Assembly (NCBI GenBank): GCA_000432255.1 | Contig: HF989914.1 | Coordinates: 11,270-75,269 of the forward strand | DNA length: 64,000 nt | Direction of reading: 5' to 3' | Source: Acholeplasma sp. CAG:878 | GTDB lineage: Bacteria; Bacillota_I; Bacilli_A; RF39; UBA660 | Shown here: in pieces, positions 2,969 to 61,200 of the stretch | How the letters are laid out: each line of letters starts with the position of its first letter | Position numbering within the stretch: position 1 is the first letter of the stretch | Position numbers and translations under genes: made by a program | The notes under the pieces: generated by a model | What the model was told of the DNA's origin: nothing | Database searches by the model: none | Seen by the model: only the letters and a program-made list of their open reading frames with translations

Positions 2969-3655
2969 TCAATATTTATTCAACATTTTTAATCTTCTAA
3001 TTACTTTCTTTTCGATTCTTGAAATATAAGATTGACTTATTCCCATAACCTCAGCAACATCTTTTTGAGTCAACTCAGCTTGACCATATAGTCCATACCT
3101 TAATGTCATTATTTTTTTATCACGAACTGGTAATTTATCAATCTCTTCATACAATATTTTTTTATCAATCTCATCTTCTAATGGTTTAGTTACTATATTA
3201 TTTTCTGTTCCTAAAATATCTTCTAAATGCAGTTCATTTCCTTCACTATCATAACTAAGACTATCTTCAAAACTAACTTCACTTCTTCTTTTTTTGTTTT
3301 TTCTTAAAAACATTAAAATTTCATTATCAATACACCTTGATGCATATGTAGCTAATTTAATATTTTTATCTAATTTATATGTATTAACACCTTTTATTAA
3401 TCCAATTGTTCCAATACTTACTAAATCTTCCAAATCCACACCTGTATTTTCATATTTTTTAGCTAAAAACACTACTAATCTTAAATTGTGTTCGATTAAT
3501 TTTTTTCTTGCTTCCTCTTCACCTTCTTGACTCCTAAGCACGTATGCTACTTCATCTTCTTTTGATAATGGTTCTGGTAGCTTATCCGCACTCCCTACAT
3601 AAAATATTTCACCTGTAAATATTTTTAATATTAATTCTTTAATTTTTTTTAACAT
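2969..3655 (-). CDS. sigE: Sporulation sigma factor sigma-E (pro-sigma-E)
   Basis: The protein aligns along its full length to B. subtilis SigE. The pro-sequence region ...EIFYVGSADKLPEPLSKEDE matches ...EVYYIGGSEALPPPLSKDEE, and LIEHNLRLVVFLAKKYENTGVDLEDLVSIGTIGLIKGV, KLATYASRCIDNEILMFLR and TQKDVAEVMGISQSYISRIEK are all shared. A GGAGGAATGAA SD lies in the 3' end of spoIIGA. Confidence 0.9.
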   Translation of the reverse strand: MLKKIKELILKIFTGEIFYVGSADKLPEPLSKEDEVAYVLRSQEGEEEARKKLIEHNLRLVVFLAKKYENTGVDLEDLVSIGTIGLIKGVNTYKLDKNIKLATYASRCIDNEILMFLRKNKKRRSEVSFEDSLSYDSEGNELHLEDILGTENNIVTKPLEDEIDKKILYEEIDKLPVRDKKIMTLRYGLYGQAELTQKDVAEVMGISQSYISRIEKKVIRRLKMLNKY

Positions 3656-3656
3656 T

Positions 3657-4421
3657 TCATTCCTCCAATAATTTTTTATTTAACAAACAATCTACTCCAT
3701 CAATTTTAATTTTATTCTCAAGAATTCCAATTATTACTTTTTCATATTCTTTTTCATTAATAATAACTTTATCTGCTTTAAAACATTTTATTAACCCTCT
3801 ACTAACACCAGTATAAGGTATAAAGTAATAATTAGCATCAATATTTATATCAATTAATAAAACTGCTTTTTTAGTAATTGGATCAACTAAATTATTGCCA
3901 GTATCTAAAAATCCTTTGCATTTTATTTCCTTTTTAGAAACATAAATAGTTACATCATAATAGTTATTATAATTGTGTTTTAACCAAATTCCTTGTTTTA
4001 TATACAAATATAATATTATCGGTGAGGATATAATTAAAAATACAAAATTAACCGATAACCCATTATTAATAAAAATCAATCCTTTTTGTTTATACGAAAA
4101 TGTTACATTTAAAAAGTACAAAAATCCTCCTAAAATCATACTTGTTGAATATAAATATAGTATATTTTTAAATGTATATTTCAAATCATAATATCCAAAA
4201 GTAATCAATACCATTAAAATACTTATAAATATTTTAAATATAAATAAAGTAAAAGTTGTAAATTCAAAAAACAAAAATAACATACTTAATCCACCTATAA
4301 AAGCTCCAAATATTATTCTTTTTATACTAGCATTTCTTTTTAAAACAATAGAAACAGTTAATAATAAAATAAAATCAAAGAAAAAATTCAAAAGCATAAT
4401 TATATCTATATATATTTTCAT
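3657..4421 (-). CDS. spoIIGA: Pro-sigma-E processing aspartic protease SpoIIGA
   Basis: MKIYIDIIMLLNFFFDFILLLTVSIVLKR aligns with the B. subtilis SpoIIGA N-terminus MKIYLDVIWLLNFCFDALLLLLTAFILKR. The protein is a multi-TM protein with the C-terminal FLDTGNNLVDP aspartyl-protease motif. The ORF-track start at 4478 is a TTG; the ATG at 4421 matches the homolog. Confidence 0.8.
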   Translation of the reverse strand: MKIYIDIIMLLNFFFDFILLLTVSIVLKRNASIKRIIFGAFIGGLSMLFLFFEFTTFTLFIFKIFISILMVLITFGYYDLKYTFKNILYLYSTSMILGGFLYFLNVTFSYKQKGLIFINNGLSVNFVFLIISSPIILYLYIKQGIWLKHNYNNYYDVTIYVSKKEIKCKGFLDTGNNLVDPITKKAVLLIDINIDANYYFIPYTGVSRGLIKCFKADKVIINEKEYEKVIIGILENKIKIDGVDCLLNKKLLEE

Positions 4422-4470
4422 AAACAAATTATACAAAAAATGATATAAATATTGTGTCGAAAGAAAGAAA
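4422..4470 (-). promoter_or_regulatory. Candidate spoIIG-type promoter: perfect TATAAT 6 nt before the spoIIGA ATG, with a Spo0A-box (TGTCGAA) over the -35 region
   Basis: Minus strand reads ...cTTTCGACAcaatatttatatcattttttgTATAATttgtttATG. The 0A-box consensus TGTCGAA is at plus 4455-4461 and the -10 hexamer at plus 4428-4433. No SD is present. Confidence 0.35.
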
Positions 4471-4491
4471 AAAAACAAGCTTTTTTAAGGC

Positions 4492-5748
4492 TTATTTTAT
4501 TATAAAACTAACACCAATTCTTTCATTTTGGATATTTATTTCATATCCTAACAAAGATAATGTTTTTTTAACAATTGATAGACCTAATCCAAATTGACCT
4601 TTCATACCCTTGGTATAAGGAGAAAATATACTATTAAGGACATCTTCATCAATTTTTGGTCCATCATTATAAAGAGTTATTTTATTGTTTTTTATGGTTA
4701 TTTTAATAACTTTATTTGCGTATCTAACAAAGTTATTTAATAGGTTATCAATTATTGCTTCCCATAGAGAAAATGTACCATTAAATTTTGTATTTCCACT
4801 GTAATTAATAGTAAATTTAACATCTTGTCTTTGAATTTTAAATTTAGTTATTGAACTTTCTATAACGTCTTTTAAATCTACTTTTTCTGTGTGATATTGC
4901 TCAAGGTCTTTAATATAATTTAATTTATTAAGATATAAAAGGGAGTGAACTTTATTCTCTAATTTTTCTACTTGTTCCTTGACTACTTTTCTTGCTTCTT
5001 TTGCATCTAACATATCATCATCTACAGCTTCCATATAAGATTTTATAACAGTTAGGGGTGTTTTAAAATCGTGTGATATATTTTGATACATTTGATTTTT
5101 ATATTCTTCTTGCTCTTTTAGGGAAATTTTAATATTATCAATAGCTTTAGACAAAACAGATAATTCATCATCAACATAATCAATATCTTCTGATTCGTAT
5201 TCAAAATTATCTAAGTTATCGATTTTTTTCTTGAGTATATTTATTTTTATAACAAGTCTTCTAGCCCATAAAACGACTATTGAAACTGCTATAAACAAAG
5301 TTATTATTAAAGTTGGGATTAGTGTATTAATAATATCTCTTCTAATATTTAAGACATATACATTATTTGTAAGAGTTACTCTCATTTGAGTATTTTTTAA
5401 TGAACTACAATAGTAATAGGTTTTACCTAAATTATTGAATTTACCACAGCCGTCATTTATATTCTCTAAAATCTGTTCAGGTTCTAAATCTATGATTTCA
5501 CTTAAGTTATTTGATACTAATAGTTGGGAGTTTTTGGTAACATATAAATAAGCGATATCATCTAATCCATTAGTCATAGTATCATCATCGATAAATTTTA
5601 ATGGTTGACTTAGGTATTGATAAATATTTCTCTCGTATATTGGAAGCATCAATCTTGGGAGGAGTAATCCAAGACCAATAAAGATTATTCCACATATTAT
5701 AATTGCAATAGCTACTAGTTGACGATATAAGGTTGTTTTTATTTTCAT
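4492..5748 (-). CDS. Sensor histidine kinase (two TM helices, extracytoplasmic loop, HisKA H-box HDFKTPLT, HATPase_c)
   Basis: H-box ISHDFKTPLTVIKSYMEA; C-terminal ATP-binding G-boxes (GLGLSIVKK); N-terminal TM helices flank a roughly 130-aa loop. Confidence 0.85.
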   Translation of the reverse strand: MKIKTTLYRQLVAIAIIICGIIFIGLGLLLPRLMLPIYERNIYQYLSQPLKFIDDDTMTNGLDDIAYLYVTKNSQLLVSNNLSEIIDLEPEQILENINDGCGKFNNLGKTYYYCSSLKNTQMRVTLTNNVYVLNIRRDIINTLIPTLIITLFIAVSIVVLWARRLVIKINILKKKIDNLDNFEYESEDIDYVDDELSVLSKAIDNIKISLKEQEEYKNQMYQNISHDFKTPLTVIKSYMEAVDDDMLDAKEARKVVKEQVEKLENKVHSLLYLNKLNYIKDLEQYHTEKVDLKDVIESSITKFKIQRQDVKFTINYSGNTKFNGTFSLWEAIIDNLLNNFVRYANKVIKITIKNNKITLYNDGPKIDEDVLNSIFSPYTKGMKGQFGLGLSIVKKTLSLLGYEINIQNERIGVSFIIK

Positions 5749-6803: not shown

Positions 6804-7754
6804 TTAATTATTCACAACTTTTTTATTTTTGAATTCTTCGATGTAAACTTGACTAATATATTCAATTGTTATATCACTATATTTATAAATTTTGGTTTTA
6901 GAATAAGGAAACTGATAACAATAATCTTGATTATTTTTTAATCCCTTTCTTTTACATATATCTTGAAATTTATTTGATGTAAATTTATGATTTGGACCTA
7001 GCGATAGCTCCAATGTTTCTTTTATCTTTTTAATTACTTCTGTAGCAGTATAAGGATGAGTTTTATCGATATCTTTTGGAACATTAATTATTGTAGCTTT
7101 TTCTCCACCATCTCTAACAACTGTGTATTTAATATCAGCTTCTTGCTCTTTTTTAGTAGATACTAATCTTAATGTTTGAGTTAAATTCTCATCTGAATCT
7201 AGTTCTTTTTTTATTTTTTTAAGCATTAACAAATTACTAGGATTTAATATTAAAGAAGAAACATCTTTATCATCTCCAGGATTAACTAACGCAATATATG
7301 GTGTTACCTTTTCATTTAAATTATATTCTGGAAATTGTTTTTTGAAAAACTTATTATAGTTTGTTAAACATCTTTGAAAAGCAGGGGATAATATAAAATC
7401 ATATTCTGGTAATATTAGATGTGTTGCTTTATTTCTAATATTTCTAACAAAAGAAATATTGTTCTTTGTTTTATCTGTTGTACTTGTAAAAACTTTCTCT
7501 ACACATTCATCTAGTCCAATTGTTCTATTAGTATCATCTTTATAATTTATTACATTGATATCTTTTGCTTTATTAATAAGATATGCTTTTAATAATAATT
7601 CCCAAGCATTACAGATAAAAAAACAAAATCCTTCAGTTCTATAATTAATAGTGGGTTTATTTATTATCTCAATTGACATTAAATATGCTTCTTCTGATTT
7701 ATTTAGTAGTGCATTAATATATTTATTTAATTCTTCTGTTTTGATAACTATCAT
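6804..7754 (-). CDS. Hypothetical protein, possibly DUF3644-like (N-terminal ...IINKPTINYRTEGFCFFICNAWELLLKAYLI... motif)
   Basis: 316-aa ORF with no housekeeping homolog recognised. The N-terminal motif resembles, as far as I can recall, the DUF3644 family often found in defence/RM neighbourhoods. It is a monocistronic gene next to tRNA-Leu. Confidence 0.6.
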   Translation of the reverse strand: MIVIKTEELNKYINALLNKSEEAYLMSIEIINKPTINYRTEGFCFFICNAWELLLKAYLINKAKDINVINYKDDTNRTIGLDECVEKVFTSTTDKTKNNISFVRNIRNKATHLILPEYDFILSPAFQRCLTNYNKFFKKQFPEYNLNEKVTPYIALVNPGDDKDVSSLILNPSNLLMLKKIKKELDSDENLTQTLRLVSTKKEQEADIKYTVVRDGGEKATIINVPKDIDKTHPYTATEVIKKIKETLELSLGPNHKFTSNKFQDICKRKGLKNNQDYCYQFPYSKTKIYKYSDITIEYISQVYIEEFKNKKVVNN

Positions 7755-8008: not shown

Positions 8009-8093
8009 TGGTGCGTGAAAAGAGACTTGAACTCTCACGATTATTAATCACAGACACCTCAAGCCTGCGTGTCTACCATTCCACCATTCACGC
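8009..8093 (-). tRNA. tRNA-Leu (anticodon GAG), class II with long variable arm, CCA encoded
   Basis: Minus strand: GCGTGAA-TG-GTGG-AATGGTAGA-CACG-C-AGGCT(T)TGAGG... The acceptor stem GCGTGAA/TTCACGC is perfect. The anticodon stem CAGGC/GTCTG encloses loop TTGAGGT (anticodon GAG). It has a long variable arm, T-arm GAGAG-TTCAAGT-CTCTT, discriminator A and CCA. Confidence 0.85.
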
Positions 8094-13161: not shown

Positions 13162-14760
13162 TTAATCCATTCTAGTAAATAATAAATCTAAATTATTAAT
13201 TTTAAGATTGCCTTTTAAGTTATATTCTTCCCATTTATATTCATCTAAATTCAACATATCTTTAATTTTATTTGCACTTGATGGCATAAATGGATTTAAT
13301 AAATTTGATAAATTAGCCATTATATAAACACAAGTATATGTTATATCGTTAAATTCATCAATATTTTCTTTTACTTTAACCCAAGGTTCATTTTCATCAT
13401 AGTATTTATTACCTAATGTAGCATATTCAATAATACTTTCAATTGCTTGTCTTAATTCACCTTTTTCAATTAATAAACCAACTTCATTATATAAGTTAAT
13501 AGTTGTTTCTTTAATTTTAGAATCAATTACCCCTTCTTTTATAATTCCGTCAAATTTTTTATTGATAAATGATAAGTTACGATTGATGAAATTTCCAATT
13601 ACTCCAACTAAAAATTTGTTGTGGTAGTTAACTAAATCAGTGCTTGAAAAATTAACATCCTTTTTTTCAGGTCCATTATTAATCATATACATTCTAACTG
13701 TATCTTTATTATAGTTTTCAGCTAAATAATCAACTGTAATCAAATTACCTTTACTTTTACTCATTTTCTCATCATTCATATTAACATATTCACTTGAGAT
13801 AATATATTTTGGTAATTGCCATTTTGGATTAATTGCTTGTAATAGTGCTGGATAAATAATAGTATGGAAAGTAATATTATCCTTACCATGTACAAAATAA
13901 GTTCTTAAATTGTCATTATCAGTTACAAAAGAATTAAAGTCGATTCCTCTTTTCTTTAAAACTTGTTCACTTGCTGTTAGATAACCTAAAACAGCTTCAA
14001 TCCAAACATATATTTTTTTATCTTCGTATCCTGAAACTGGTACATCAACACCCCAATCAAGTTGTCTTGTAGCTGCTCTATCAATTAAACCTAAATTTAA
14101 ATATTTTTTTGATTCATTTAAAGCATTTTTACGCCAATCATTCTCATGACTATTTATAAATTCTTCTAAAACTTTTTGAAATGCTGATAATTTAAAATAT
14201 AAGTGTTTATTTTTTTTAATTATTGTTTCGCTATTACATGTTTTACAATGTTTTGAAAGAAGTTTAGAAGGGTCGATTGGACTTAAACACTCATCACACT
14301 GTTCTCCCATCGCTTTTCCCCCACAAATTGGACAAGTACCTAATATTTCTCTATCTGATAAAAATTCTTCGCAATTAGGACAATAATCTTGTTCTTCTTC
14401 CTTTTCATAAATGTAACCATTTTCTAATATTTTAGTAAAATATTCCATTACTTTTTGTTTATGTGTTAGAGTCATTGTAGCGGTATATAAATCATAAGAA
14501 AAATCTAATGAATTAAAACTATTTACAAATTCTTCGTGATATTTAGTTGCAATATCAACAGGTTTAACTCCTTCTTTTTTAGCTCTTACAGTAATTGGTG
14601 TTCCATGACAATCACTTCCTGATACATAAACAACCTCATCACCTAAACCTCTATAATATCTAGCAATAACATCAGCTGGAAGTAATGCGGCTAAGTGACC
14701 TATATGCAAAGAGTTATTTGCATAAGGCCACGCTCCTCCTATTAGTATATTTCTTTTCAT
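13162..14760 (-). CDS. metG: Methionine--tRNA ligase (short form)
   Basis: Class I aaRS with HIGH-type motif (SLHIGHLAAL), four-Cys zinc knuckle (CPNCEEF...CPICGG), KMSKS (KMSKSKGN). Confidence 0.9.
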   Translation of the reverse strand: MKRNILIGGAWPYANNSLHIGHLAALLPADVIARYYRGLGDEVVYVSGSDCHGTPITVRAKKEGVKPVDIATKYHEEFVNSFNSLDFSYDLYTATMTLTHKQKVMEYFTKILENGYIYEKEEEQDYCPNCEEFLSDREILGTCPICGGKAMGEQCDECLSPIDPSKLLSKHCKTCNSETIIKKNKHLYFKLSAFQKVLEEFINSHENDWRKNALNESKKYLNLGLIDRAATRQLDWGVDVPVSGYEDKKIYVWIEAVLGYLTASEQVLKKRGIDFNSFVTDNDNLRTYFVHGKDNITFHTIIYPALLQAINPKWQLPKYIISSEYVNMNDEKMSKSKGNLITVDYLAENYNKDTVRMYMINNGPEKKDVNFSSTDLVNYHNKFLVGVIGNFINRNLSFINKKFDGIIKEGVIDSKIKETTINLYNEVGLLIEKGELRQAIESIIEYATLGNKYYDENEPWVKVKENIDEFNDITYTCVYIMANLSNLLNPFMPSSANKIKDMLNLDEYKWEEYNLKGNLKINNLDLLFTRMD

Positions 14761-14772
14761 ATTTTATTCCTT

Positions 14773-17148
14773 TCATTTTACAACTATATTTACTATTTTA
14801 TTTGGTATAACTATTTCTTTTACAATTGTTTTTCCTTCTAAATATTTTAAAACATTACTTAATTCTTTAGCACATTTTAACATTTCTTCATTAGAACTAT
14901 TTAAAGCAATTGTAGTAGTTCCTCTTACTTTACCATTTACTTGAACAGCAAGTTCATACACTTCTTCTTTTGCTTTTTCTTGTTCAAATGTTGGCCATTT
15001 TTCATATGCTATAGTATTATTATGCCCTAGTTTTTCCCATAATTCCTCTGTTATGAAAGGTATTACTGGATTTAACAATTTTAAGAAACCTTCAGCGTAT
15101 TCTTTTGGAAATATATCTTCTTTGTATACTGCATTTACAAAAATCATCATTTGACTTATAGCAGTATTAAAATTAAGTGTCTCATAATCTTCAGTTACCT
15201 TTTTAACTGTTTGATGATATATTTTTTCTAAATTTTTATTTTCTAAATCTTTTATATTTCCTTCAGTATACAATCTGTATATTCTTTCAATAAATCTATG
15301 AGCTCCATTAACACCATCACTATTCCATGGTTTATCTGCTTCAAGAGGTCCCATAAACATTTCATATAATCTTAATGTATCTGCACCATATTCTTTTACA
15401 ACATCATTAGGATTAACAACATACTCTGGATATCTTTTTCCCATTTTAATTCCATTAGAGCCTAATATCATTCCTTGATGAACTAATTTTTTAAATGGCT
15501 CTTTAACTGGAGATACTCCTTTATCATATAAATAGTTATTCCACATTCGTGAATATAGTAAGTGTCCAACAGCGTGTTCAGGACCACCAACATATAAATC
15601 AACTGGCATCCAATGTTTTAATAAATCTTTATCAGCTATTTCTTTATCGTTATTAGGGTCGATATATCTTAAGAAATACCAACTTGAACCAGCACTACCA
15701 GGCATTGTAGAAGTTTCTCTTTTTCCAAGAGGTGTATTTACCCAAGAAGTTGCTCTTTCAAGTGGTGAGGCACCATCCTTAGAAGGACTATAATTATCTA
15801 ACACAGGTAATACTAAAGGTAAGTCTTTATCATCTAATGCAATGATATTATCATTATTATGAATTACAGGTATTGGTTCTCCCCAATATCTTTGTCTAGC
15901 AAATATCCATTCTCTCAAACGATAATTTACTTTTTTATTACCTTTTTTATTTTCTTCTAGCCATTCTAGCATTTTATTTATAGCATCTTCTTTGTTTAGA
16001 CCATTTAAGAAACCAGAATTAATATGAATACCATCACCTATATAAGCGGAATTAGCTACATCTCCACCTTCGATTACAGGTATAATTTTTATGTTGAATT
16101 TTCTAGCAAACTCATAATCACGTTCATCATGAGCAGGAACAGCCATAATCGCACCAGTACCATAACTTGCTAAAACGTAATCAGATATCCAAATAGGAAT
16201 TTGTTCATTGTTAACAGGATTTATTGCATATGCTCCTGTAAAAACACCAGTTTTTTCTTTATTTAATTCTGTTCTTTCCAAATCAGATTTTGATGCACAT
16301 AATTTTTGATAATTAATTACCTCTTCTTTTTTATCTTCAGTTGTTATTTTTGAAACATATTCATGTTCAGGGGACAAAACACAATATGTTGCTCCAAACA
16401 ATGTATCGCATCTTGTTGTAAATACTGTAAATTCTAAATCATGATTAGCAATTTTAAACACTACATTAGCGCCAATAGATTTTCCAATCCAATTTCTTTG
16501 CATTTCTTTAGTTGACTCTGGCCAATCTATTTCTTCTAAACCACTTAGTAATCTTTCGGCATATTTAGGAATGTCAATTACCCATTGTTTCATATTTTTT
16601 CTTATTACTGGATAACCCCCTCTTTCACTTTTACCATCGATTACTTCATCATTAGCTAGTACAGTTCCAAGTTCAGGACACCAATTAACAGGCATATCTA
16701 TTTGTTTAGCTAAGCCATCATTAAATAATTGTTTAAAAATCCATTGAGTCCATTTATAATATTTTGGGTCACTTGTAGATACTTCTTTAGACCAATCATA
16801 AGAAAAACCCAACATTTTTAATTGTTCTTTAAATATTTCAATATTTTTTTCTGTAAATCCATTAGGATTTTTTCCAGTTTTAATAGCAAATTGTTCAGCT
16901 GGTAAACCAAAAGAATCAAATCCCATTGGGTGTAATACATTAAAACCTTGCATTCTTTTCATTCTTGATACAATATCAGTTGCTGTATACCCTTCTGGGT
17001 GTCCTGCATGTAATCCTACTCCTGATGGATAAGGAAACATATCTAAACAATAAAATTTTGGTTTACTAAAATCTTTTATATCTGTTCTAAAAGTATCGTT
17101 ATCTTCCCAATACTTTCTCCATTTTTTTTCTATTTCACTTGTATTCAT
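14773..17148 (-). CDS. leuS: Leucine--tRNA ligase
   Basis: 791 aa, [20 protein letters not shown] (HIGH region) and the LeuS editing-domain signature; lies 12 nt upstream of metG. Confidence 0.9.
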
Positions 17149-20690: not shown

Positions 20691-22088
20691 TTAACAATCT
20701 TTCATTTTTACCAAAGATAGTTCCCAACTTTCCATCGCATCGTAAACATCTAGGTATAACTCAAATGTTTCATTTAAATTAAGAAAAACTTCATTAGAAA
20801 GTTTGTTTCTATATTTTTCATAATCTCCTATTATACCTTCTTGATGTGGAATTGTTAATTTAATTCCATCTTTTGTTACTTCATTAACAATTATAGTGAT
20901 TTTACCCATAATCATTGGTTCATTAGTTATTACTTTATAATAGGTAATAATTGGTTGAACTTTTTGTTTTTCCAATTCTTCTGCTGTTCCATAACAACCA
21001 TGAAATGGAATATGTGTAAGTTTTATGTAATAATCATTATCTACTATATAATTAACTACATCTTTATTTGGAAAACCTTTGCTTATTATATCTTTTGCTT
21101 CCTCTGGATTTTCTCGCAAATATTTTAAAAATGTATATACACCTGTTGCTTTAAAATGAGGATTTAATTCTGCTATTTGCTTCGCTGTATACCCTTCTAT
21201 ATTAATAGCATTAGGTAGGGCATAAGTCTTTTTCATTAAATATAAAATAAACTCATTAAATATATCATCATATTTAGATAAATCATTAAATAACACTTTA
21301 GAAACATTATCGCTTTTTCCTATTTCATTTTTAAAATAATTAATAAGCAATTTAGAAAAGAAAGAATCGTTCACTTTATTTTCTATTATTTTCTCTAGCG
21401 GTAATTCCATTTTTATTTTGTTTTCATAATTTGATACTTTTTTAAAAAGTATTTCGTATTCTGATAACAAATCAATAAAATCATTCCAATTCTCAGGCTC
21501 TGCACCATTGCCATTTATTTGTTTATTTAATCCATCTATGTTAATTTTTAGTTTCCACGCTATACTTTTATCTCCAGAATATTTTGTATTCCAATCAGCA
21601 ATAATTGTTTTTAATCTATTACAAAATTCATCAAACTTCGAAAGAGAAATCGAAACATTTAAATCATTAATATATGATGTTTTACTATTATCTAAATATA
21701 ATAAAACACATTTATTATTCGTTTTTGTTAAAGATAAGCAATAATTTTCGACAACTACATTAATACTTTCTTTTTTTACTTTATCTTGTGAAAAATCATA
21801 GTTAGGAACACCATAAACCTTTTGTGGTACATTATCCTCTGGTTCTATAACATACTTTTCCTTATTTTCATTTTTTCTTTTTTCTTGAAGCCAATTTGGT
21901 ACTCCGTATACTTCTCTTGGCAAATTATCTTCAGATTCTATAGTATATTTTTCTTTAATTTCATCTTGTTTTGCCCTTGCTTCTTCTTCCCATTGCTTTC
22001 TAATTACATCAGGAATACCATAAACTATTTGAGGCCTATTATCTTCTGCCTCAATATTATATTTATCTTTTTTATTAAATAATCCCAT
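20691..22088 (-). CDS. Hypothetical protein with three N-terminal tandem repeats (KYxIExEDNxPxxVYGVPN) and a C-terminal domain of about 360 aa with no recognised fold
   Basis: Repeats: KYNIEAEDNRPQIVYGIPDV / KYTIESEDNLPREVYGVPNW / KYVIEPEDNVPQKVYGVPNY. The likely start is ATG 22088 (MGLFNKK), preceded by a GGAGGAAAATAAA SD; the first ATG at 22103 is inside that SD. It is the last gene of the island operon. Confidence 0.6.
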   Translation of the reverse strand: MGLFNKKDKYNIEAEDNRPQIVYGIPDVIRKQWEEEARAKQDEIKEKYTIESEDNLPREVYGVPNWLQEKRKNENKEKYVIEPEDNVPQKVYGVPNYDFSQDKVKKESINVVVENYCLSLTKTNNKCVLLYLDNSKTSYINDLNVSISLSKFDEFCNRLKTIIADWNTKYSGDKSIAWKLKINIDGLNKQINGNGAEPENWNDFIDLLSEYEILFKKVSNYENKIKMELPLEKIIENKVNDSFFSKLLINYFKNEIGKSDNVSKVLFNDLSKYDDIFNEFILYLMKKTYALPNAINIEGYTAKQIAELNPHFKATGVYTFLKYLRENPEEAKDIISKGFPNKDVVNYIVDNDYYIKLTHIPFHGCYGTAEELEKQKVQPIITYYKVITNEPMIMGKITIIVNEVTKDGIKLTIPHQEGIIGDYEKYRNKLSNEVFLNLNETFELYLDVYDAMESWELSLVKMKDC

Positions 22089-22130: not shown

Positions 22131-23225
22131 TTAATCATCACCATATACATCTTTTATGCAAAAATTAGGTTTTCTCTCATCAAAATTAAATGTATGAAAT
22201 GAATCTCCTAAGCAATATTTCCAATTTGAACATTTTTCACATTTACTACACTTTGTTCTGTTTTCGGTTCTAAAAATTTTAAATCTATTTTCCCATACAT
22301 CAACAAAATTATCAGTTTTGATATTTCCTTGAATAAATTCTTTTCTTCTTTCTACATCTGGACATATAAATATATCACCGTTGCTTAAAATGCTTGCTAC
22401 ATATAACCCAGCAGTACATATAAAATAAGTATCTCGTATTTCTTTTTCTAAATTTATTCCTAAATAATGACTACAACCATATTCAACATTCATTAAATTT
22501 TCTTCTCTTTTTTCTTTTATAAAATTGAATAAATATTTATAATCTTCTTTATCTAATAAAATATCGTTGTTGTTTTTAGCTCTTCCTATTGGGTCTACAT
22601 TTATAACTCTCCATGAAATAACATTTAACTCTTTCATCAAATTATATACATCTTCTAATTCATGAATATTTTTTTTGTTAGCAACTGTTGTAACTTGAAC
22701 AATCTTAATACTTGGTACTTGTTGTAATTTTTTTATGTTATTAATAATTTTATCAAAACTATTCGGTACTTTTCTAAAACTTTCATGAGTTTCTTTTAAA
22801 CCATCTAAACTAATAGATATAGTTTCCATATTAGTATCAATCATCTTATTAATAATTTCATCATTTATTAACATTCCATTTGTTGTCATGCCCCATCTAA
22901 ATCCAAGTTCACAAGCATACTTCATAAGAGTAAATAAGTCTTTTCTAACTAATGGTTCTCCTCCAGTAACATTTAAAAGTATTTCATTAGCATTATATCT
23001 TTCAGAAATATCTCTTAATGTTCTTTTTAAATCTTCTATACTTATTTCATCTTTTAAAATTGTATCACCGCAACTACTACCACAGTGTTCGCATCTTGCA
23101 TTACATCTTAATGTCACTTCTAAAAATAAATCTTTTAAAATTGGTTTTTCATAGAGTTTTTTTCTGTAATCAGCTAATTTATCCATGTTATCAATTTTAA
23201 TTTTTTTTATATATTCTTCATTCAT
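22131..23225 (-). CDS. Radical SAM enzyme with C-terminal SPASM domain (peptide/protein-modifying maturase type)
   Basis: CNARCEHCG (CX3CX2C), GGEPL, and a C-terminal Cys cluster C...C...CSKCEKCSNWKYC (SPASM, 7 Cys). AGGTG SD. Confidence 0.85.
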   Translation of the reverse strand: MNEEYIKKIKIDNMDKLADYRKKLYEKPILKDLFLEVTLRCNARCEHCGSSCGDTILKDEISIEDLKRTLRDISERYNANEILLNVTGGEPLVRKDLFTLMKYACELGFRWGMTTNGMLINDEIINKMIDTNMETISISLDGLKETHESFRKVPNSFDKIINNIKKLQQVPSIKIVQVTTVANKKNIHELEDVYNLMKELNVISWRVINVDPIGRAKNNNDILLDKEDYKYLFNFIKEKREENLMNVEYGCSHYLGINLEKEIRDTYFICTAGLYVASILSNGDIFICPDVERRKEFIQGNIKTDNFVDVWENRFKIFRTENRTKCSKCEKCSNWKYCLGDSFHTFNFDERKPNFCIKDVYGDD

Positions 23226-23236
23226 ATTTACACCTA

Positions 23237-24685
23237 TTATTTTTCATTCAGTATTTGAATAGACTTTTTTCTTTCTCCAGCATACCAATAAATTAAATGC
23301 TTTATACTTTTTATATCATCTAAATCATTTGTATTATTATATTGTTCTATATTTCTATTCACTATAGCACTTAAAATAGTCCCATCTTCTTGTATATCAA
23401 CTATATATAAGCAAATTCCTGTCCAACTTCTATATATGTAAAACTTATTATTTTCATAAAATGCAAACCAATGGTCTTCCATTTCTTTTGGAATATGTCC
23501 TTTTTTTAATTTGGTTAAATTTTCTTTCGTAAGTTTTAAATCTAATTTAATTTTTTTTGTTTCATTTGGCATATCAAGAATTTTCCAACTTTTTCTAGTT
23601 GCTATTTCATCTTCTTCGTATAAATATTTATCATAATCGTTTAATTTGTTAATAAATTTATTTATTAATTCAGATACATAATCTTTTTTTTGAATTACTT
23701 TTAACCATTCTTGTGGTATTTCATCAAAACCATAGATTAAACCTGCTAAACCACCAGTTAAAGCTCCAATAGTATCTGTATCATCACCGAGATTAACTGC
23801 TTTTAGTAAAGCATCTTTATAATTGTTTGTCGTTAAAATGGTCCACATAACTGCTTCTAAGGTATCAACAATATAGCCACTTGACTTTATTTCTTTTTCA
23901 CCTAAATTACTAATGTCATCTACTAAAATCCTTTTATATATATTTAAAGTAATTTCTTTGTCTCCTTTTAAAACATCACAATTATTAAACCATTTTTTTA
24001 GTAAAATATAAGCATCTTTTGGATTTATACCGTCTAATAAGTATTCTATATATTTTGAATAAATAAAACATCCAATTTTACTATATATATGTGAATGAGT
24101 TAAAGAAGAACCAGTATAAATAAAATTTTTAAATAAATTATCGTCTAAAATTAACATATTACCATAAATTGCTAATGGTAAAATACGCATCAATGAACCA
24201 TTTCCATTTGAACTAATATCATCATATCCACAATTAATTAATTTTTCTAATTTTGAATCATTAATGATATTTTCATTGTATTTTTCTTTTTTGTTTTTGT
24301 AATTTGTTAAAGAATAATTAGTAGAATTTCCTATATCAAAAACATTATTAAATGGCGTGTATTTACTATTAATTTTCCAATTTAAAAATGCATCTAATAT
24401 ATTTTTAAACATTGTATAAGTATTCATATCATCAATCGGTGTATTTACAATTGCATCCATGGTTGCTAATACCATAGAAGTATCATCACTCCAAGTTCCT
24501 TTCGGTTGATTATGCGTTCCATATTCTTCCATATCTTTTACTTTTTTTCTTTTTAGTATATTTCTACTTTGAAACTCAATTGGAACACCTAGAGCATCGC
24601 CTACAACAAATCCCATAATACTTGCTTTTATTCGATTTGATTTATTTAAATTTTTAGTTAAATTAGATTTATTACTAAGTATCAT
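23237..24685 (-). CDS. ADP-ribosylglycohydrolase (ARH/DraG family) with an extra C-terminal domain of about 140 aa
   Basis: N-terminal IMGFVVGDALGVPIEF and C-terminal GDDTDTIGALTGGLAGLIYGFDEIPQEW ARH motifs. Residues from about 345 to the end form an additional domain with no recognised homology. Confidence 0.85.
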   Translation of the reverse strand: MILSNKSNLTKNLNKSNRIKASIMGFVVGDALGVPIEFQSRNILKRKKVKDMEEYGTHNQPKGTWSDDTSMVLATMDAIVNTPIDDMNTYTMFKNILDAFLNWKINSKYTPFNNVFDIGNSTNYSLTNYKNKKEKYNENIINDSKLEKLINCGYDDISSNGNGSLMRILPLAIYGNMLILDDNLFKNFIYTGSSLTHSHIYSKIGCFIYSKYIEYLLDGINPKDAYILLKKWFNNCDVLKGDKEITLNIYKRILVDDISNLGEKEIKSSGYIVDTLEAVMWTILTTNNYKDALLKAVNLGDDTDTIGALTGGLAGLIYGFDEIPQEWLKVIQKKDYVSELINKFINKLNDYDKYLYEEDEIATRKSWKILDMPNETKKIKLDLKLTKENLTKLKKGHIPKEMEDHWFAFYENNKFYIYRSWTGICLYIVDIQEDGTILSAIVNRNIEQYNNTNDLDDIKSIKHLIYWYAGERKKSIQILNEK

Positions 24686-24696
24686 TATAACACATC

Positions 24697-26013
24697 CTAT
24701 ATTCTAAATTGTTGAAAAGAAGATTTGCAAACATTTAATTTTTCTGCTTCATGTATTTTTTCTTCTATATCTAATTGTTCTAATTTCTTATCTATTTCTT
24801 TTATTAAATTATCAATTTTAGTTGGTTCATTTGATAATTCAGTTTCAAATTGATTTCCAAAGTTTTCTTTTTTTAAACGAACAAACTGTTCAAGATTAAA
24901 CATTTTAATTTGCTTTTTTTCTAATACTGGCTTATCTATGTTCAATTTTTCAACTGGTATATATAATGAATCTACTTTTTCTTCATATTCTTGATTATTA
25001 ATAAATAATTTTATTGTTTTAGAAATTATTACTAAGTCACTTAGTTTAGTTATATAGTTTCCATATTTTTCAATCAAATCTTCGTAAGAACGTGTACCTA
25101 TTTCAAATCTAATATTTCTTGAAATTCCAGAACTTAACATATCACTTAATTCATTAACCATTTCTAATACATCAATATTATCAAGTACAAAATTAAATTT
25201 ATTATATTTTTTTGAGTTTATTAATATTGTAAATAATTGTTCAATAAACATTGTTGCAACATTATTTATATATCTATTTTCATCTTTGGCAATTAAGAAA
25301 ATAGCAGTCGGTTTAGTCATAATATCATCATAACTAAATGTAGTTTTGTTAAGTAAAACACTTAACATTTCTCTACTTACGTAAGTTCTTAATTTTTCTC
25401 TTGCAACTGAAACTATACTTCCTTTTGTTTCTTTTGGAGCAAGAAAAGTAGACGCCGCAAAAATATAAGATTGTGAACATGGATTTTTCAATTTAAAATA
25501 TTGAGTTATATAATCGCTAGTAGCATAATTGTTATTTATTCCATTAAACATTAAATTAACACTGTTTAAATTAATTTCTTCTTCCTTGCCATCCTCAAAT
25601 AATCCAAGCACAATACCAGTATAAAAATCTGATGCCGTATTTGACCAAAATGGGTCTATTGTAGAATTTTCGTAAAACATTATTTTTGCTTGTTTTTCTA
25701 TATAATCTATAGCTTCATCAATCATACCTTTCTTATATAAATTATAAGGATATTCTAAAGGATTCCAACCATCACTTTTATTTAAATCTCTTAAATTTAA
25801 TATAATAATATTATAGTTTTTATTCTTTAAATCATTATAATATTTATTTATGTATTCCTCTTTTGAATCTAGTATTAATAAACTTTGTCCATCATTAATC
25901 GCTTCCCCAACTAATGGAAACAATACATTTGATGTTTTACCAGATGAAATATCACCTGATACAATTAAATTTTTTTTACTATTAAGCATTTCTTTTAATA
26001 TTTCTTTTTTCAT
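24697..26013 (-). CDS. VirD4/TraG/TrwB-family (type IV coupling protein-like) P-loop ATPase core, without the N-terminal transmembrane segment
   Basis: Walker A LIVSGDISSGKTSNVLFPLV, then LLILDSKEEY, GWNPL and DPFWSNTASDFYTGIVLGL, which match the T4SS-DNA_transf / TrwB hallmark series (GxGKT...DpKgE...NPL...dpfW.nsA). Only 438 aa and no predicted TM helices. Confidence 0.7.
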   Translation of the reverse strand: MKKEILKEMLNSKKNLIVSGDISSGKTSNVLFPLVGEAINDGQSLLILDSKEEYINKYYNDLKNKNYNIIILNLRDLNKSDGWNPLEYPYNLYKKGMIDEAIDYIEKQAKIMFYENSTIDPFWSNTASDFYTGIVLGLFEDGKEEEINLNSVNLMFNGINNNYATSDYITQYFKLKNPCSQSYIFAASTFLAPKETKGSIVSVAREKLRTYVSREMLSVLLNKTTFSYDDIMTKPTAIFLIAKDENRYINNVATMFIEQLFTILINSKKYNKFNFVLDNIDVLEMVNELSDMLSSGISRNIRFEIGTRSYEDLIEKYGNYITKLSDLVIISKTIKLFINNQEYEEKVDSLYIPVEKLNIDKPVLEKKQIKMFNLEQFVRLKKENFGNQFETELSNEPTKIDNLIKEIDKKLEQLDIEEKIHEAEKLNVCKSSFQQFRI

Positions 26014-61104: not shown

Positions 61105-61200
61105 CTCCTTTAATCTCAGACTCGCCATTAAGGTACATTAAATGTTTATAACCTTTTTTGTGCGGTTGTAGAGAGGTCTCTACACAGTAATTAATTTTAA
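61105..61200 (-). promoter_or_regulatory. Candidate L21-operon leader RNA structure (ribosomal-protein leader)
   Basis: A GC-rich structured segment upstream of rplU on the minus strand: TGTGTAGAGACCTCTCTACAACCGCACA (nested stems), then GGCGAGTCTGAGATTAAAGGAGG leading to the ATG. This is the position where Firmicutes carry the L21 leader. Confidence 0.3.

Follow-up and report, generated by a model that had tools for sequence, protein, structure and literature searches.

The locus described here lies in a 64,000-nucleotide stretch of DNA from Acholeplasma sp. CAG:878 (assembly GCA_000432255.1, contig HF989914.1, positions 11,270 to 75,269), to which we refer as the window, and comprises the sporulation genes spoIIGA and sigE together with the short segment upstream of them that we read as a spoIIG promoter. 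Coordinates are those of the 64-kb window, whose GC content is 26%, and the promoter and spoIIGA-sigE are read on the minus strand, where the order is the stop codon TAA of a histidine-kinase gene, a short hairpin with a T8 run, ctttct, TTCGACA, 21 nucleotides (nt), TATAAT, ttgttt, and ATG. From upstream to downstream the features are:

4468..4498, minus strand: terminator-like hairpin with a U8 tract where the upstream histidine-kinase gene ends (its stop codon is 4494-4492)
4455..4461, plus strand: perfect Spo0A-box (0A-box) core TGTCGAA, reading TTCGACA on the gene strand and including the -35-like TCGACA; -40 to -34 from A4421
4434..4454, minus strand: 21-nt spacer between box and -10 hexamer, with a T-run at its end
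4428..4433, minus strand: -10 hexamer TATAAT of sigma-A type, its first T 12 nt before the start codon
4422..4427, minus strand: 6-nt discriminator ttgttt between the -10 hexamer and the start codon
4419..4421, minus strand: spoIIGA start codon ATG; A4421 is the predicted +1, the seventh base after the -10 hexamer
3657..4421, minus strand: spoIIGA coding sequence, 254 amino acids and a TGA stop; pro-sigma-E processing protease
3661..3666, minus strand: Shine-Dalgarno (SD) sequence GGAGGA of sigE, within the last spoIIGA codons and 5 nt before the sigE ATG
2969..3655, minus strand: sigE, encoding pro-sigma-E (228 amino acids), beginning 1 nt past the spoIIGA stop codon

An earlier note on this DNA had described TATAAT-ttgttt-ATG with the start codon at 4421, no SD sequence before it, and a 0A box at plus-strand 4455-4461. 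The minus-strand positions are borne out, motif search locates the box exactly there, the N-terminus MKIYIDII encoded from ATG 4421 resembles that of homologues, and a motif check found nothing SD-like in the 20 nt upstream of the ATG. The note's placing of the box at -29 to -23 has to be corrected to -40 to -34, counting A4421 as +1, and its description of the box as lying at the -35 position stands for the overlap with a -35-like sequence and fails for a canonical 17-nt placing, the distance from the -10 hexamer being 21 nt; at 17 nt from the hexamer there is no -35-like sequence (cacaat, one of six matches). An SD-like motif (AGGTG, GGAGG, and similar) precedes a plausible start in most of the roughly 55 long open reading frames (ORFs) of the window, sigE included, and spoIIGA is one of the few long ORFs without one. 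In folding, the first 60 nt of the predicted spoIIGA messenger RNA (mRNA) show hardly any structure (-1.3 kcal/mol, z = +1.65). The last part of the kinase gene contains a second TATAAT (4504-4499).

The identity of the two genes is supported by family profiles and by synteny. The 254-amino-acid ORF from ATG 4421 matches the Pfam family SpoIIGA (PF03419, E = 1.5e-47) and shows the further marks of this family (peptidase U4), namely an N-terminal membrane domain and a DTG motif (D173-T-G175) that is invariant or nearly so in the alignment of homologues, as the MKIY N-terminus is conserved; its NCBIfam TIGR02854 score of 130 bits lies under the cut-off of 209.55, as expected for a divergent, shorter SpoIIGA of the RF39 type. 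The window protein and CCY28236.1 of Acholeplasma sp. CAG:878 (also Candidatus Faecisoma sp.) have the same sequence. Faecisoma/CAG-878 is placed in GTDB order RF39, family CAG-822 (PMC8035907), and RF39 genomes carry spoIIGA and are predicted spore formers (PMC10868615). An alternative genetic code with TGA read as tryptophan was considered and rejected, since homologues end at the same LLEE/LLEG position. The sigma factor has its best NCBIfam matches to SigE equivalogs (320 and 305 bits, just below the cut-offs of 339 and 348.6); we call it SigE because it is syntenic with spoIIGA, and this synteny holds in every locus examined, in relatives and Bacillus alike. It also passes the cut-off of the SigK subfamily (260.6 against 252), and NCBI records call it SigK. 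Its N-terminal pro-sequence seems about 11 residues shorter than the model.

A protein search together with a scan of genome contigs yielded 80 orthologous loci, from uncultured gut Bacilli or "Tenericutes" metagenome-assembled genomes at 46-66% identity, and closer relatives added through contig look-ups brought the total to about 90. Upstream of spoIIGA nearly all of them carry AAAA(C/T)GACA, 21 nt with a terminal T-run, and TATAAT or TATACT. The pattern GACA-N21-TA...T fits 83 of 85 orthologous loci, the exceptions being one GTCA and one 22-nt spacer; a cruder regular expression finds a spacing of exactly 21 nt in 72 of 81. The core (A/T)(C/T)GACA stands at the box position in 83/85, the base before GACA being C in 53 loci (CGACA) and T in 21 (TGACA), and the T-run of the spacer is conserved at -7 to -1 from the -10 hexamer. 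This promoter module accompanies spoIIGA under varied upstream genes, including a histidine kinase, a pilin-like gene (as in locus L088), and FtsW/SpoVE. The alignment makes it very probable that the TATAAT of the window corresponds by orthology to the -10 of a spoIIG promoter, and the site has what marks this promoter type: a position upstream of spoIIGA-sigE, a sigma-A-like -10, and a displaced -35-like element. A logic like that of B. subtilis spoIIG, with aberrant -35 spacing, had been proposed in the earlier note and gains support from two Bacillus loci fetched through their SigE proteins (L093, B. subtilis group; L094, B. cereus group), both of which show TTGACA-22 nt-TATACT.

The arrangement can be taken as real because it is conserved across orthologous loci, and not from counts in a single sequence. 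The window holds 266 copies of TATAAT on both strands. TGTCGAA occurs three times against 2.4 expected, and the other two copies (21747 and 52381) sit within ORFs, consistent with chance. CGACA-N20-22-TATAMT occurs once against 0.17 expected, with no further CGACA-21-TATAAT promoter elsewhere in the window, and spoIIGA carries the only TATAAT-N6-ATG at a gene start. Taken alone, the window sequence is a pattern without significance.

Where the window differs from most of its relatives is between the -10 hexamer and the start codon. The common layout is TATAAT-N6-GGTGAT-N3/4-ATG, with 15 or 16 nt from the -10 to the start codon in 52 of 81 loci, and GGTGAT is complementary to the 3' end of 16S ribosomal RNA and serves as the SD of many window genes. 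In these SD-led relatives the SD begins 6 nt (6-7 nt) after the -10, from which a transcription start at its first G and a leader of 9-10 nt are predicted; the SD would thus stand at the extreme 5' end of the mRNA (for example L005 2970-3003 and L015 2970-3003), and its distance from the -10 is as conserved as the promoter. In the window the A of the ATG occupies the position of the relatives' first SD G, and the leader appears in our alignment A2 as a clean gap: a relative carries GGTGATTAT, a segment that the window lacks. The same SD-less TATAAT-N6-ATG is found in six distinct members of the window clade, the window included (73-100% identity), and in one locus outside it:

L081 and L082: second and third assembly of the window species; SD-less TATAAT-N6-ATG
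L085: 85% protein identity; N6 = taattt
L086/87: 80% protein identity; N6 = gtaatt
L088: 76% protein identity; N6 = taaaat
L089/90: 73% protein identity; N6 = gtaaat
L095/96: 73% protein identity; N6 = aatttc
L027: 60% identity, outside the window clade; SD-less, N6 = aaaaat

In all seven SD-less loci the spacer is exactly 6 nt long while its sequence drifts, position -1 is a pyrimidine and position +1 an A, and the start codon is ATG, which is what initiation at the very 5' end of an mRNA should demand, in contrast to the ATA, ACG, GTG, or TTG found in 24 of the 82 SD-led loci of the SpoIIGA tree (L097, with ATA, joined after the tree and falls outside these 82). The window-type SD-less loci form one clade in that tree, and L027 stands beside the SD-led L029, which points to a second, independent origin of the leaderless layout. 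The SD-less spacing thus appears to be maintained by selection and not to be a single accident. A -10 (TANNNT) that starts about 12 nt before the start codon is a published signature for predicting leaderless genes (PMC3160421); the first T of the window -10 (4433) lies 12 nt before A4421 and has this signature, alone among the gene starts of the window. The suggestion in the earlier note that the spoIIGA mRNA is probably leaderless is accordingly supported by the conserved N6, by the second origin, and by the position of the relatives' SD, the start site being deduced from these. A full-text literature search returned nothing linking spoIIGA with leaderless mRNA, and the 15 potentially leaderless C. 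difficile genes reported in PMC7438776 are not linked with spoIIGA in its main text, the supplementary gene list lying outside this statement. As judged from the aligned loci, leader loss is a new element of this spoIIG promoter, of a kind that is itself known.

We propose that Spo0A~P bound at TTCGACA would activate sigma-A RNA polymerase at a promoter lacking a properly spaced -35, that transcription would start at A4421, 7 nt after the -10, and that ribosomes would load directly on the 5'-terminal AUG of spoIIGA, probably giving low-level translation, with sigE translated from its own strong SD within the end of spoIIGA. The leaderless state probably arose when the leader of 9-10 nt with its SD, still present in relatives, was lost. 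A transcription start at A4421, or one to two bases from it, is likely; control by Spo0A is reasonably probable; and in the full statement, that of a Spo0A-type sigma-A promoter giving a leaderless spoIIGA-sigE mRNA, we place moderate confidence. We infer the mode and efficiency of spoIIGA translation from sequence features.

Several observations weigh against this proposal. The start site is a prediction, and TATAAT-N6-ATG is no commoner in the window than chance would have it (4 found, 4.5 expected). Leaderless mRNAs are uncommon in Firmicutes, with 15 candidates in C. difficile in the part of PMC7438776 considered here; some were detected in roughly a quarter of genomes, and there they account for about 4% of the genes (PMC3160421). 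The kinase terminator of the window is weak, with one mismatch in its stem, and some read-through is possible. The box at 4455-4461 is the sole one with at most one mismatch in 4400-4700, and no second such box lies within 280 nt upstream, where Bacillus promoters have several. In most relatives the box is degenerate, reading AACGACA (5/7 matches) or AATGACA, and in that form it could equally be a displaced -35 or the site of another regulator. Finally, a tblastn search of the window and all fetched loci for spo0A, with a B. subtilis Spo0A query, returned receiver-domain similarity only.

The alternative that fares best keeps the same promoter and shifts one of the two starts, and we consider it unlikely: transcription might begin so as to leave a leader of 1-3 nt, which would be functionally leaderless, or begin past the A, with translation from Met9 (ATG 4397) behind a leader of about 20 nt that has no SD. 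Start sites can fall anywhere from 6 to 9 nt past a -10, purines are also available at G4419 and A4418, and gene callers begin P0003-P0005 at Met9. Against this stand the exact 6-nt spacing and the constant pyrimidine at -1 and A at +1 in the SD-less loci, together with the coding constraint on codons 2-8: across about 85 loci these vary at third and first positions, their second positions are invariant, and within the window clade the changes are synonymous or conservative. This periodicity, which begins at codon 2, indicates that the MKIY N-terminus is translated and that the start lies at this ATG or before codon 2, so Met9 is not the real start; ATG 4397 was rejected on this ground, has no preceding SD, and encodes a residue that is not universal (tryptophan in Bacillus, leucine in L027). 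Upstream starts at TTG 4478, 4436, and 4427 were also rejected, being without SD and not conserved. Gene callers are inconsistent at SD-less spoIIGA, choosing Met9 in P0003-P0005 and Met46 in P0044 with the N-terminus cut or extended, and members of the SpoIIGA protein cluster of 246, 257, and 260 amino acids differ in their called starts.

A second alternative, slightly less credible again, would keep the leaderless mRNA and deny that (C/T)GACA is a Spo0A site, taking it for a sigma-A -35 out of its usual place or assigning it to a different activator or repressor; the full match of the window to TGTCGAA would then be a coincidence. It draws on the single box, on the AACGACA or TGACA of most relatives, and on the weak binding of C. 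difficile Spo0A to its own spoIIGA promoter (PMC3485338). However, the excess of CGACA over TGACA is the opposite of the sigma-A -35 preference, and it fits the bases contacted by Spo0A better, these being G2, C4, and G5, which correspond to the conserved C-G-A-C core (PMC3485338). sigE expression is Spo0A-dependent in C. difficile as well (PMC3789822/PMC3485338). The box lies in the same orientation as in Bacillus and the spacing of 21-22 nt is shared. Both are reportedly a hallmark of the Spo0A-dependent Bacillus spoIIG promoter, and the spoIIG promoter is reported, in work of Satola in 1992, Baldus in 1994, and Kumar and Moran in 2008, to need Spo0A~P at boxes overlapping a -35-like element. 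Control by Spo0A through TTCGACA is therefore the reading we retain for the box.

Longer transcripts are an improbable third alternative. They would come from read-through of the response-regulator/kinase genes or from another upstream promoter and be translated by SD-independent initiation in an A/U-rich context, with the TATAAT of minor importance for translation. Initiation of this kind, without an SD in A/U-rich sequence, occurs in low-GC bacteria, the second TATAAT at 4504-4499 is available, and the kinase terminator is of low stability: the hairpin with U8 over the kinase stop codon is predicted at -6.1 kcal/mol in the window, -9.5 in L081 (perfect stem), and -7.9 in L085, and a consensus terminator scan missed the kinase hairpin, which has too few G-C pairs in its stem. 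Read-through transcripts would carry no SD for spoIIGA. On the other side, the region has about as many promoter-like matches as chance predicts (31 against 27), GACA-21-TATAAT stays attached to spoIIGA when the upstream genes differ, a hairpin with a T-run precedes or overlaps the promoter module in nearly all loci, and a conserved, exact N6 would be unexpected were the -10 irrelevant to the 5' end. Read-through from the kinase operon, which the earlier note had given as an example of a scenario contrary to its own reading, is thus unlikely given the hairpin with U8 and a promoter that travels with spoIIGA, and we keep to initiation at the spoIIG promoter itself.

The terminators of this region take two forms. 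In relatives such as L086 (277-299), L015 (2953-2980), and L003 (2937-2968), a hairpin with a T-run extends over the GACA box and takes up the 21-nt spacer; it is predicted at -9 to -10 kcal/mol (z = -3 to -5), is not present at 4434-4461 of the window, and has stems that differ by clade (CGACAC/GTGTCG against ATCATTAAAA/TTTTAATGAT), with GACA in the stem or the loop. These features suggest that the terminator of the upstream gene is nested in the promoter. In the window and in L085 the two elements are separate, and the terminator follows the kinase gene. An inverted pair of 0A boxes was considered for this hairpin and rejected, as the stems vary between clades, the T-run is kept, and the window is without the hairpin. 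A scan against Rfam at the gathering threshold gave no known RNA element in the spoIIGA intergenic region.

That the juxtaposition of TATAAT, 0A box, and ATG is a functionless chance product of a 26% GC genome, as the numbers of TATAAT-N6-ATG and TGTCGAA copies in the window, both near expectation, would allow, is very improbable and on the comparative data is refuted, the arrangement being kept position for position over about 90 loci, down to 46% protein identity, and carried identically by independent assemblies of the same species (L081 and L082).

The start codon itself varies among the relatives. A sister clade of 21 loci, which includes Ca. Faecisoma merdavium, has a strong SD (GAGGTGAT or GGAGAGTGAT) and ATA or ACG at the Met1 position, that is, at the codon aligned with 4421-4419:

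ATA: L001, L003, L004, L007, L008, L018, L023, L061, L091, L092, L097
ACG: L014, L025, L028, L039, L042, L045, L047, L048, L051, L060

No in-frame ATG, GTG, or TTG lies upstream of the ATA or ACG in this clade, and L039 has an in-frame TAA two codons upstream of its ACG. The SpoIIGA proteins of the clade are called from Met9 (248-250 amino acids), and the coding constraint on their codons 2-8 suggests non-canonical initiation of SpoIIGA at AUA or ACG. The GTG and TTG starts of Bacillus spoIIGA indicate that weak start codons are not confined to RF39. In a further relative, L046 (1-145), the promoter and SD are followed by CTG AAA ATA AAT, which resembles the remnant of a gene start, then by about 60 nt of unrelated sequence and a second MKVY start; the segment lies near the contig end and could be an insertion or a misassembly.

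The minimal leader of the SD-led relatives, the two leaderless origins, the ATA/ACG clade, and the GTG/TTG starts of Bacillus together suggest, as a hypothesis, that weak or atypical initiation has been selected. We raise only tentatively, as a possibility that we rate below even, that control of spoIIGA is exerted at initiation, which is weak or atypical across Firmicutes and has been remodelled repeatedly; in the window clade leaderless initiation would hold the ratio of SpoIIGA to pro-sigma-E low and might tie SpoIIGA synthesis to the state of the ribosomes and initiation factors in the sporulating cell. If true, this would add a hitherto undescribed translational layer to sigma-E activation. 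The spoIIG promoter is a textbook case of activator-dependent repositioning of RNA polymerase, and its 21-22 bp geometry is kept from Bacillus to uncultured RF39 bacteria with reduced genomes. With one gene and one promoter, these loci form a natural series of an SD-led minimal leader, leaderless forms (twice), and non-AUG starts, which could be used to study both the origins of leaderless mRNAs and the protease-to-substrate ratio in sigma-E activation. In practical terms, automatic annotation of these genomes sets the start of spoIIGA wrongly, at Met9 or Met46.

Elsewhere in the window, sigE is without sigG downstream, and the next gene (1417-2613) encodes a 398-amino-acid protein with a prepilin-type N-terminal methylation domain. 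A cluster at 22131-26013, amid housekeeping genes, encodes a radical SAM/SPASM protein, an ADP-ribosylarginine hydrolase-like protein, and a VirD4-like coupling protein (CD1115 family), and may be the remnant of a mobile or defence element; no family match was obtained for the 465-amino-acid ORF that adjoins it (20691-22088) or for the ORF at 6804-7754. The only Rfam matches in the window are an L21 leader (54.8 bits) and a tRNA, at 61108-61177 and 8012-8093, and the Rfam scan of the window reported no T-box upstream of metG (13162-14760) or leuS (14773-17148).

Among known systems, the closest comparison is with the spoIIG promoter of Bacillus, which likewise lies directly upstream of spoIIGA-sigE and has a sigma-A-like -10, a GACA displaced to 21-22 nt from it, and an overlapping 0A-type box in reverse orientation. 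The two differ in what follows the -10: 50 nt separate it from a GTG start (1509-1511) in L093 and 30 nt from a TTG start (1564-1566) in L094, for leaders of about 24-44 nt with an SD, whereas the window has neither leader nor SD and starts with ATG. Bacillus also has further 0A boxes upstream (CTCGACA about 54 nt upstream in L093), where the window has one perfect box and a perfect TATAAT, and in L093 and L094, unlike the window, sigG follows sigE. In clostridia, sigma-A promoters have been mapped upstream of spoIIGA in C. difficile, C. acetobutylicum, and C. perfringens; in C. difficile the promoter has the boxes GTGACA and TATAAT, the region is bound by Spo0A, and a spo0A mutant shows a 240-fold fall in sigE expression (PMC3789822, PMC3485338). 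Compared by box sequences, the window shares with the clostridia a promoter of sigma-A type upstream of spoIIGA and with C. difficile the GACA/TATAAT boxes, but the start site of C. difficile is mapped upstream of spoIIGA and that of the window is predicted at the ATG. With leaderless mRNAs such as those of lambda cI, Tn1721 tetR, many genes of Actinobacteria and Deinococcus, and, among Firmicutes, Lactococcus/Streptococcus and Mycoplasma, the window spoIIGA has in common a -10 at 12 nt, the lack of an SD, and an AUG start. Here, however, the start site is predicted, and spoIIGA is part of an operon that is developmental and activator-dependent, in a genome that uses SD sequences. The SD-led loci of RF39 type (L005, L015, and others) have the same promoter module and the N-terminus MK(I/V)Y(L/I/V)DL, and differ in having kept, between the predicted +1 and the ATG, the GGTGAT-N3/4 that has been lost in the window clade and in L027.

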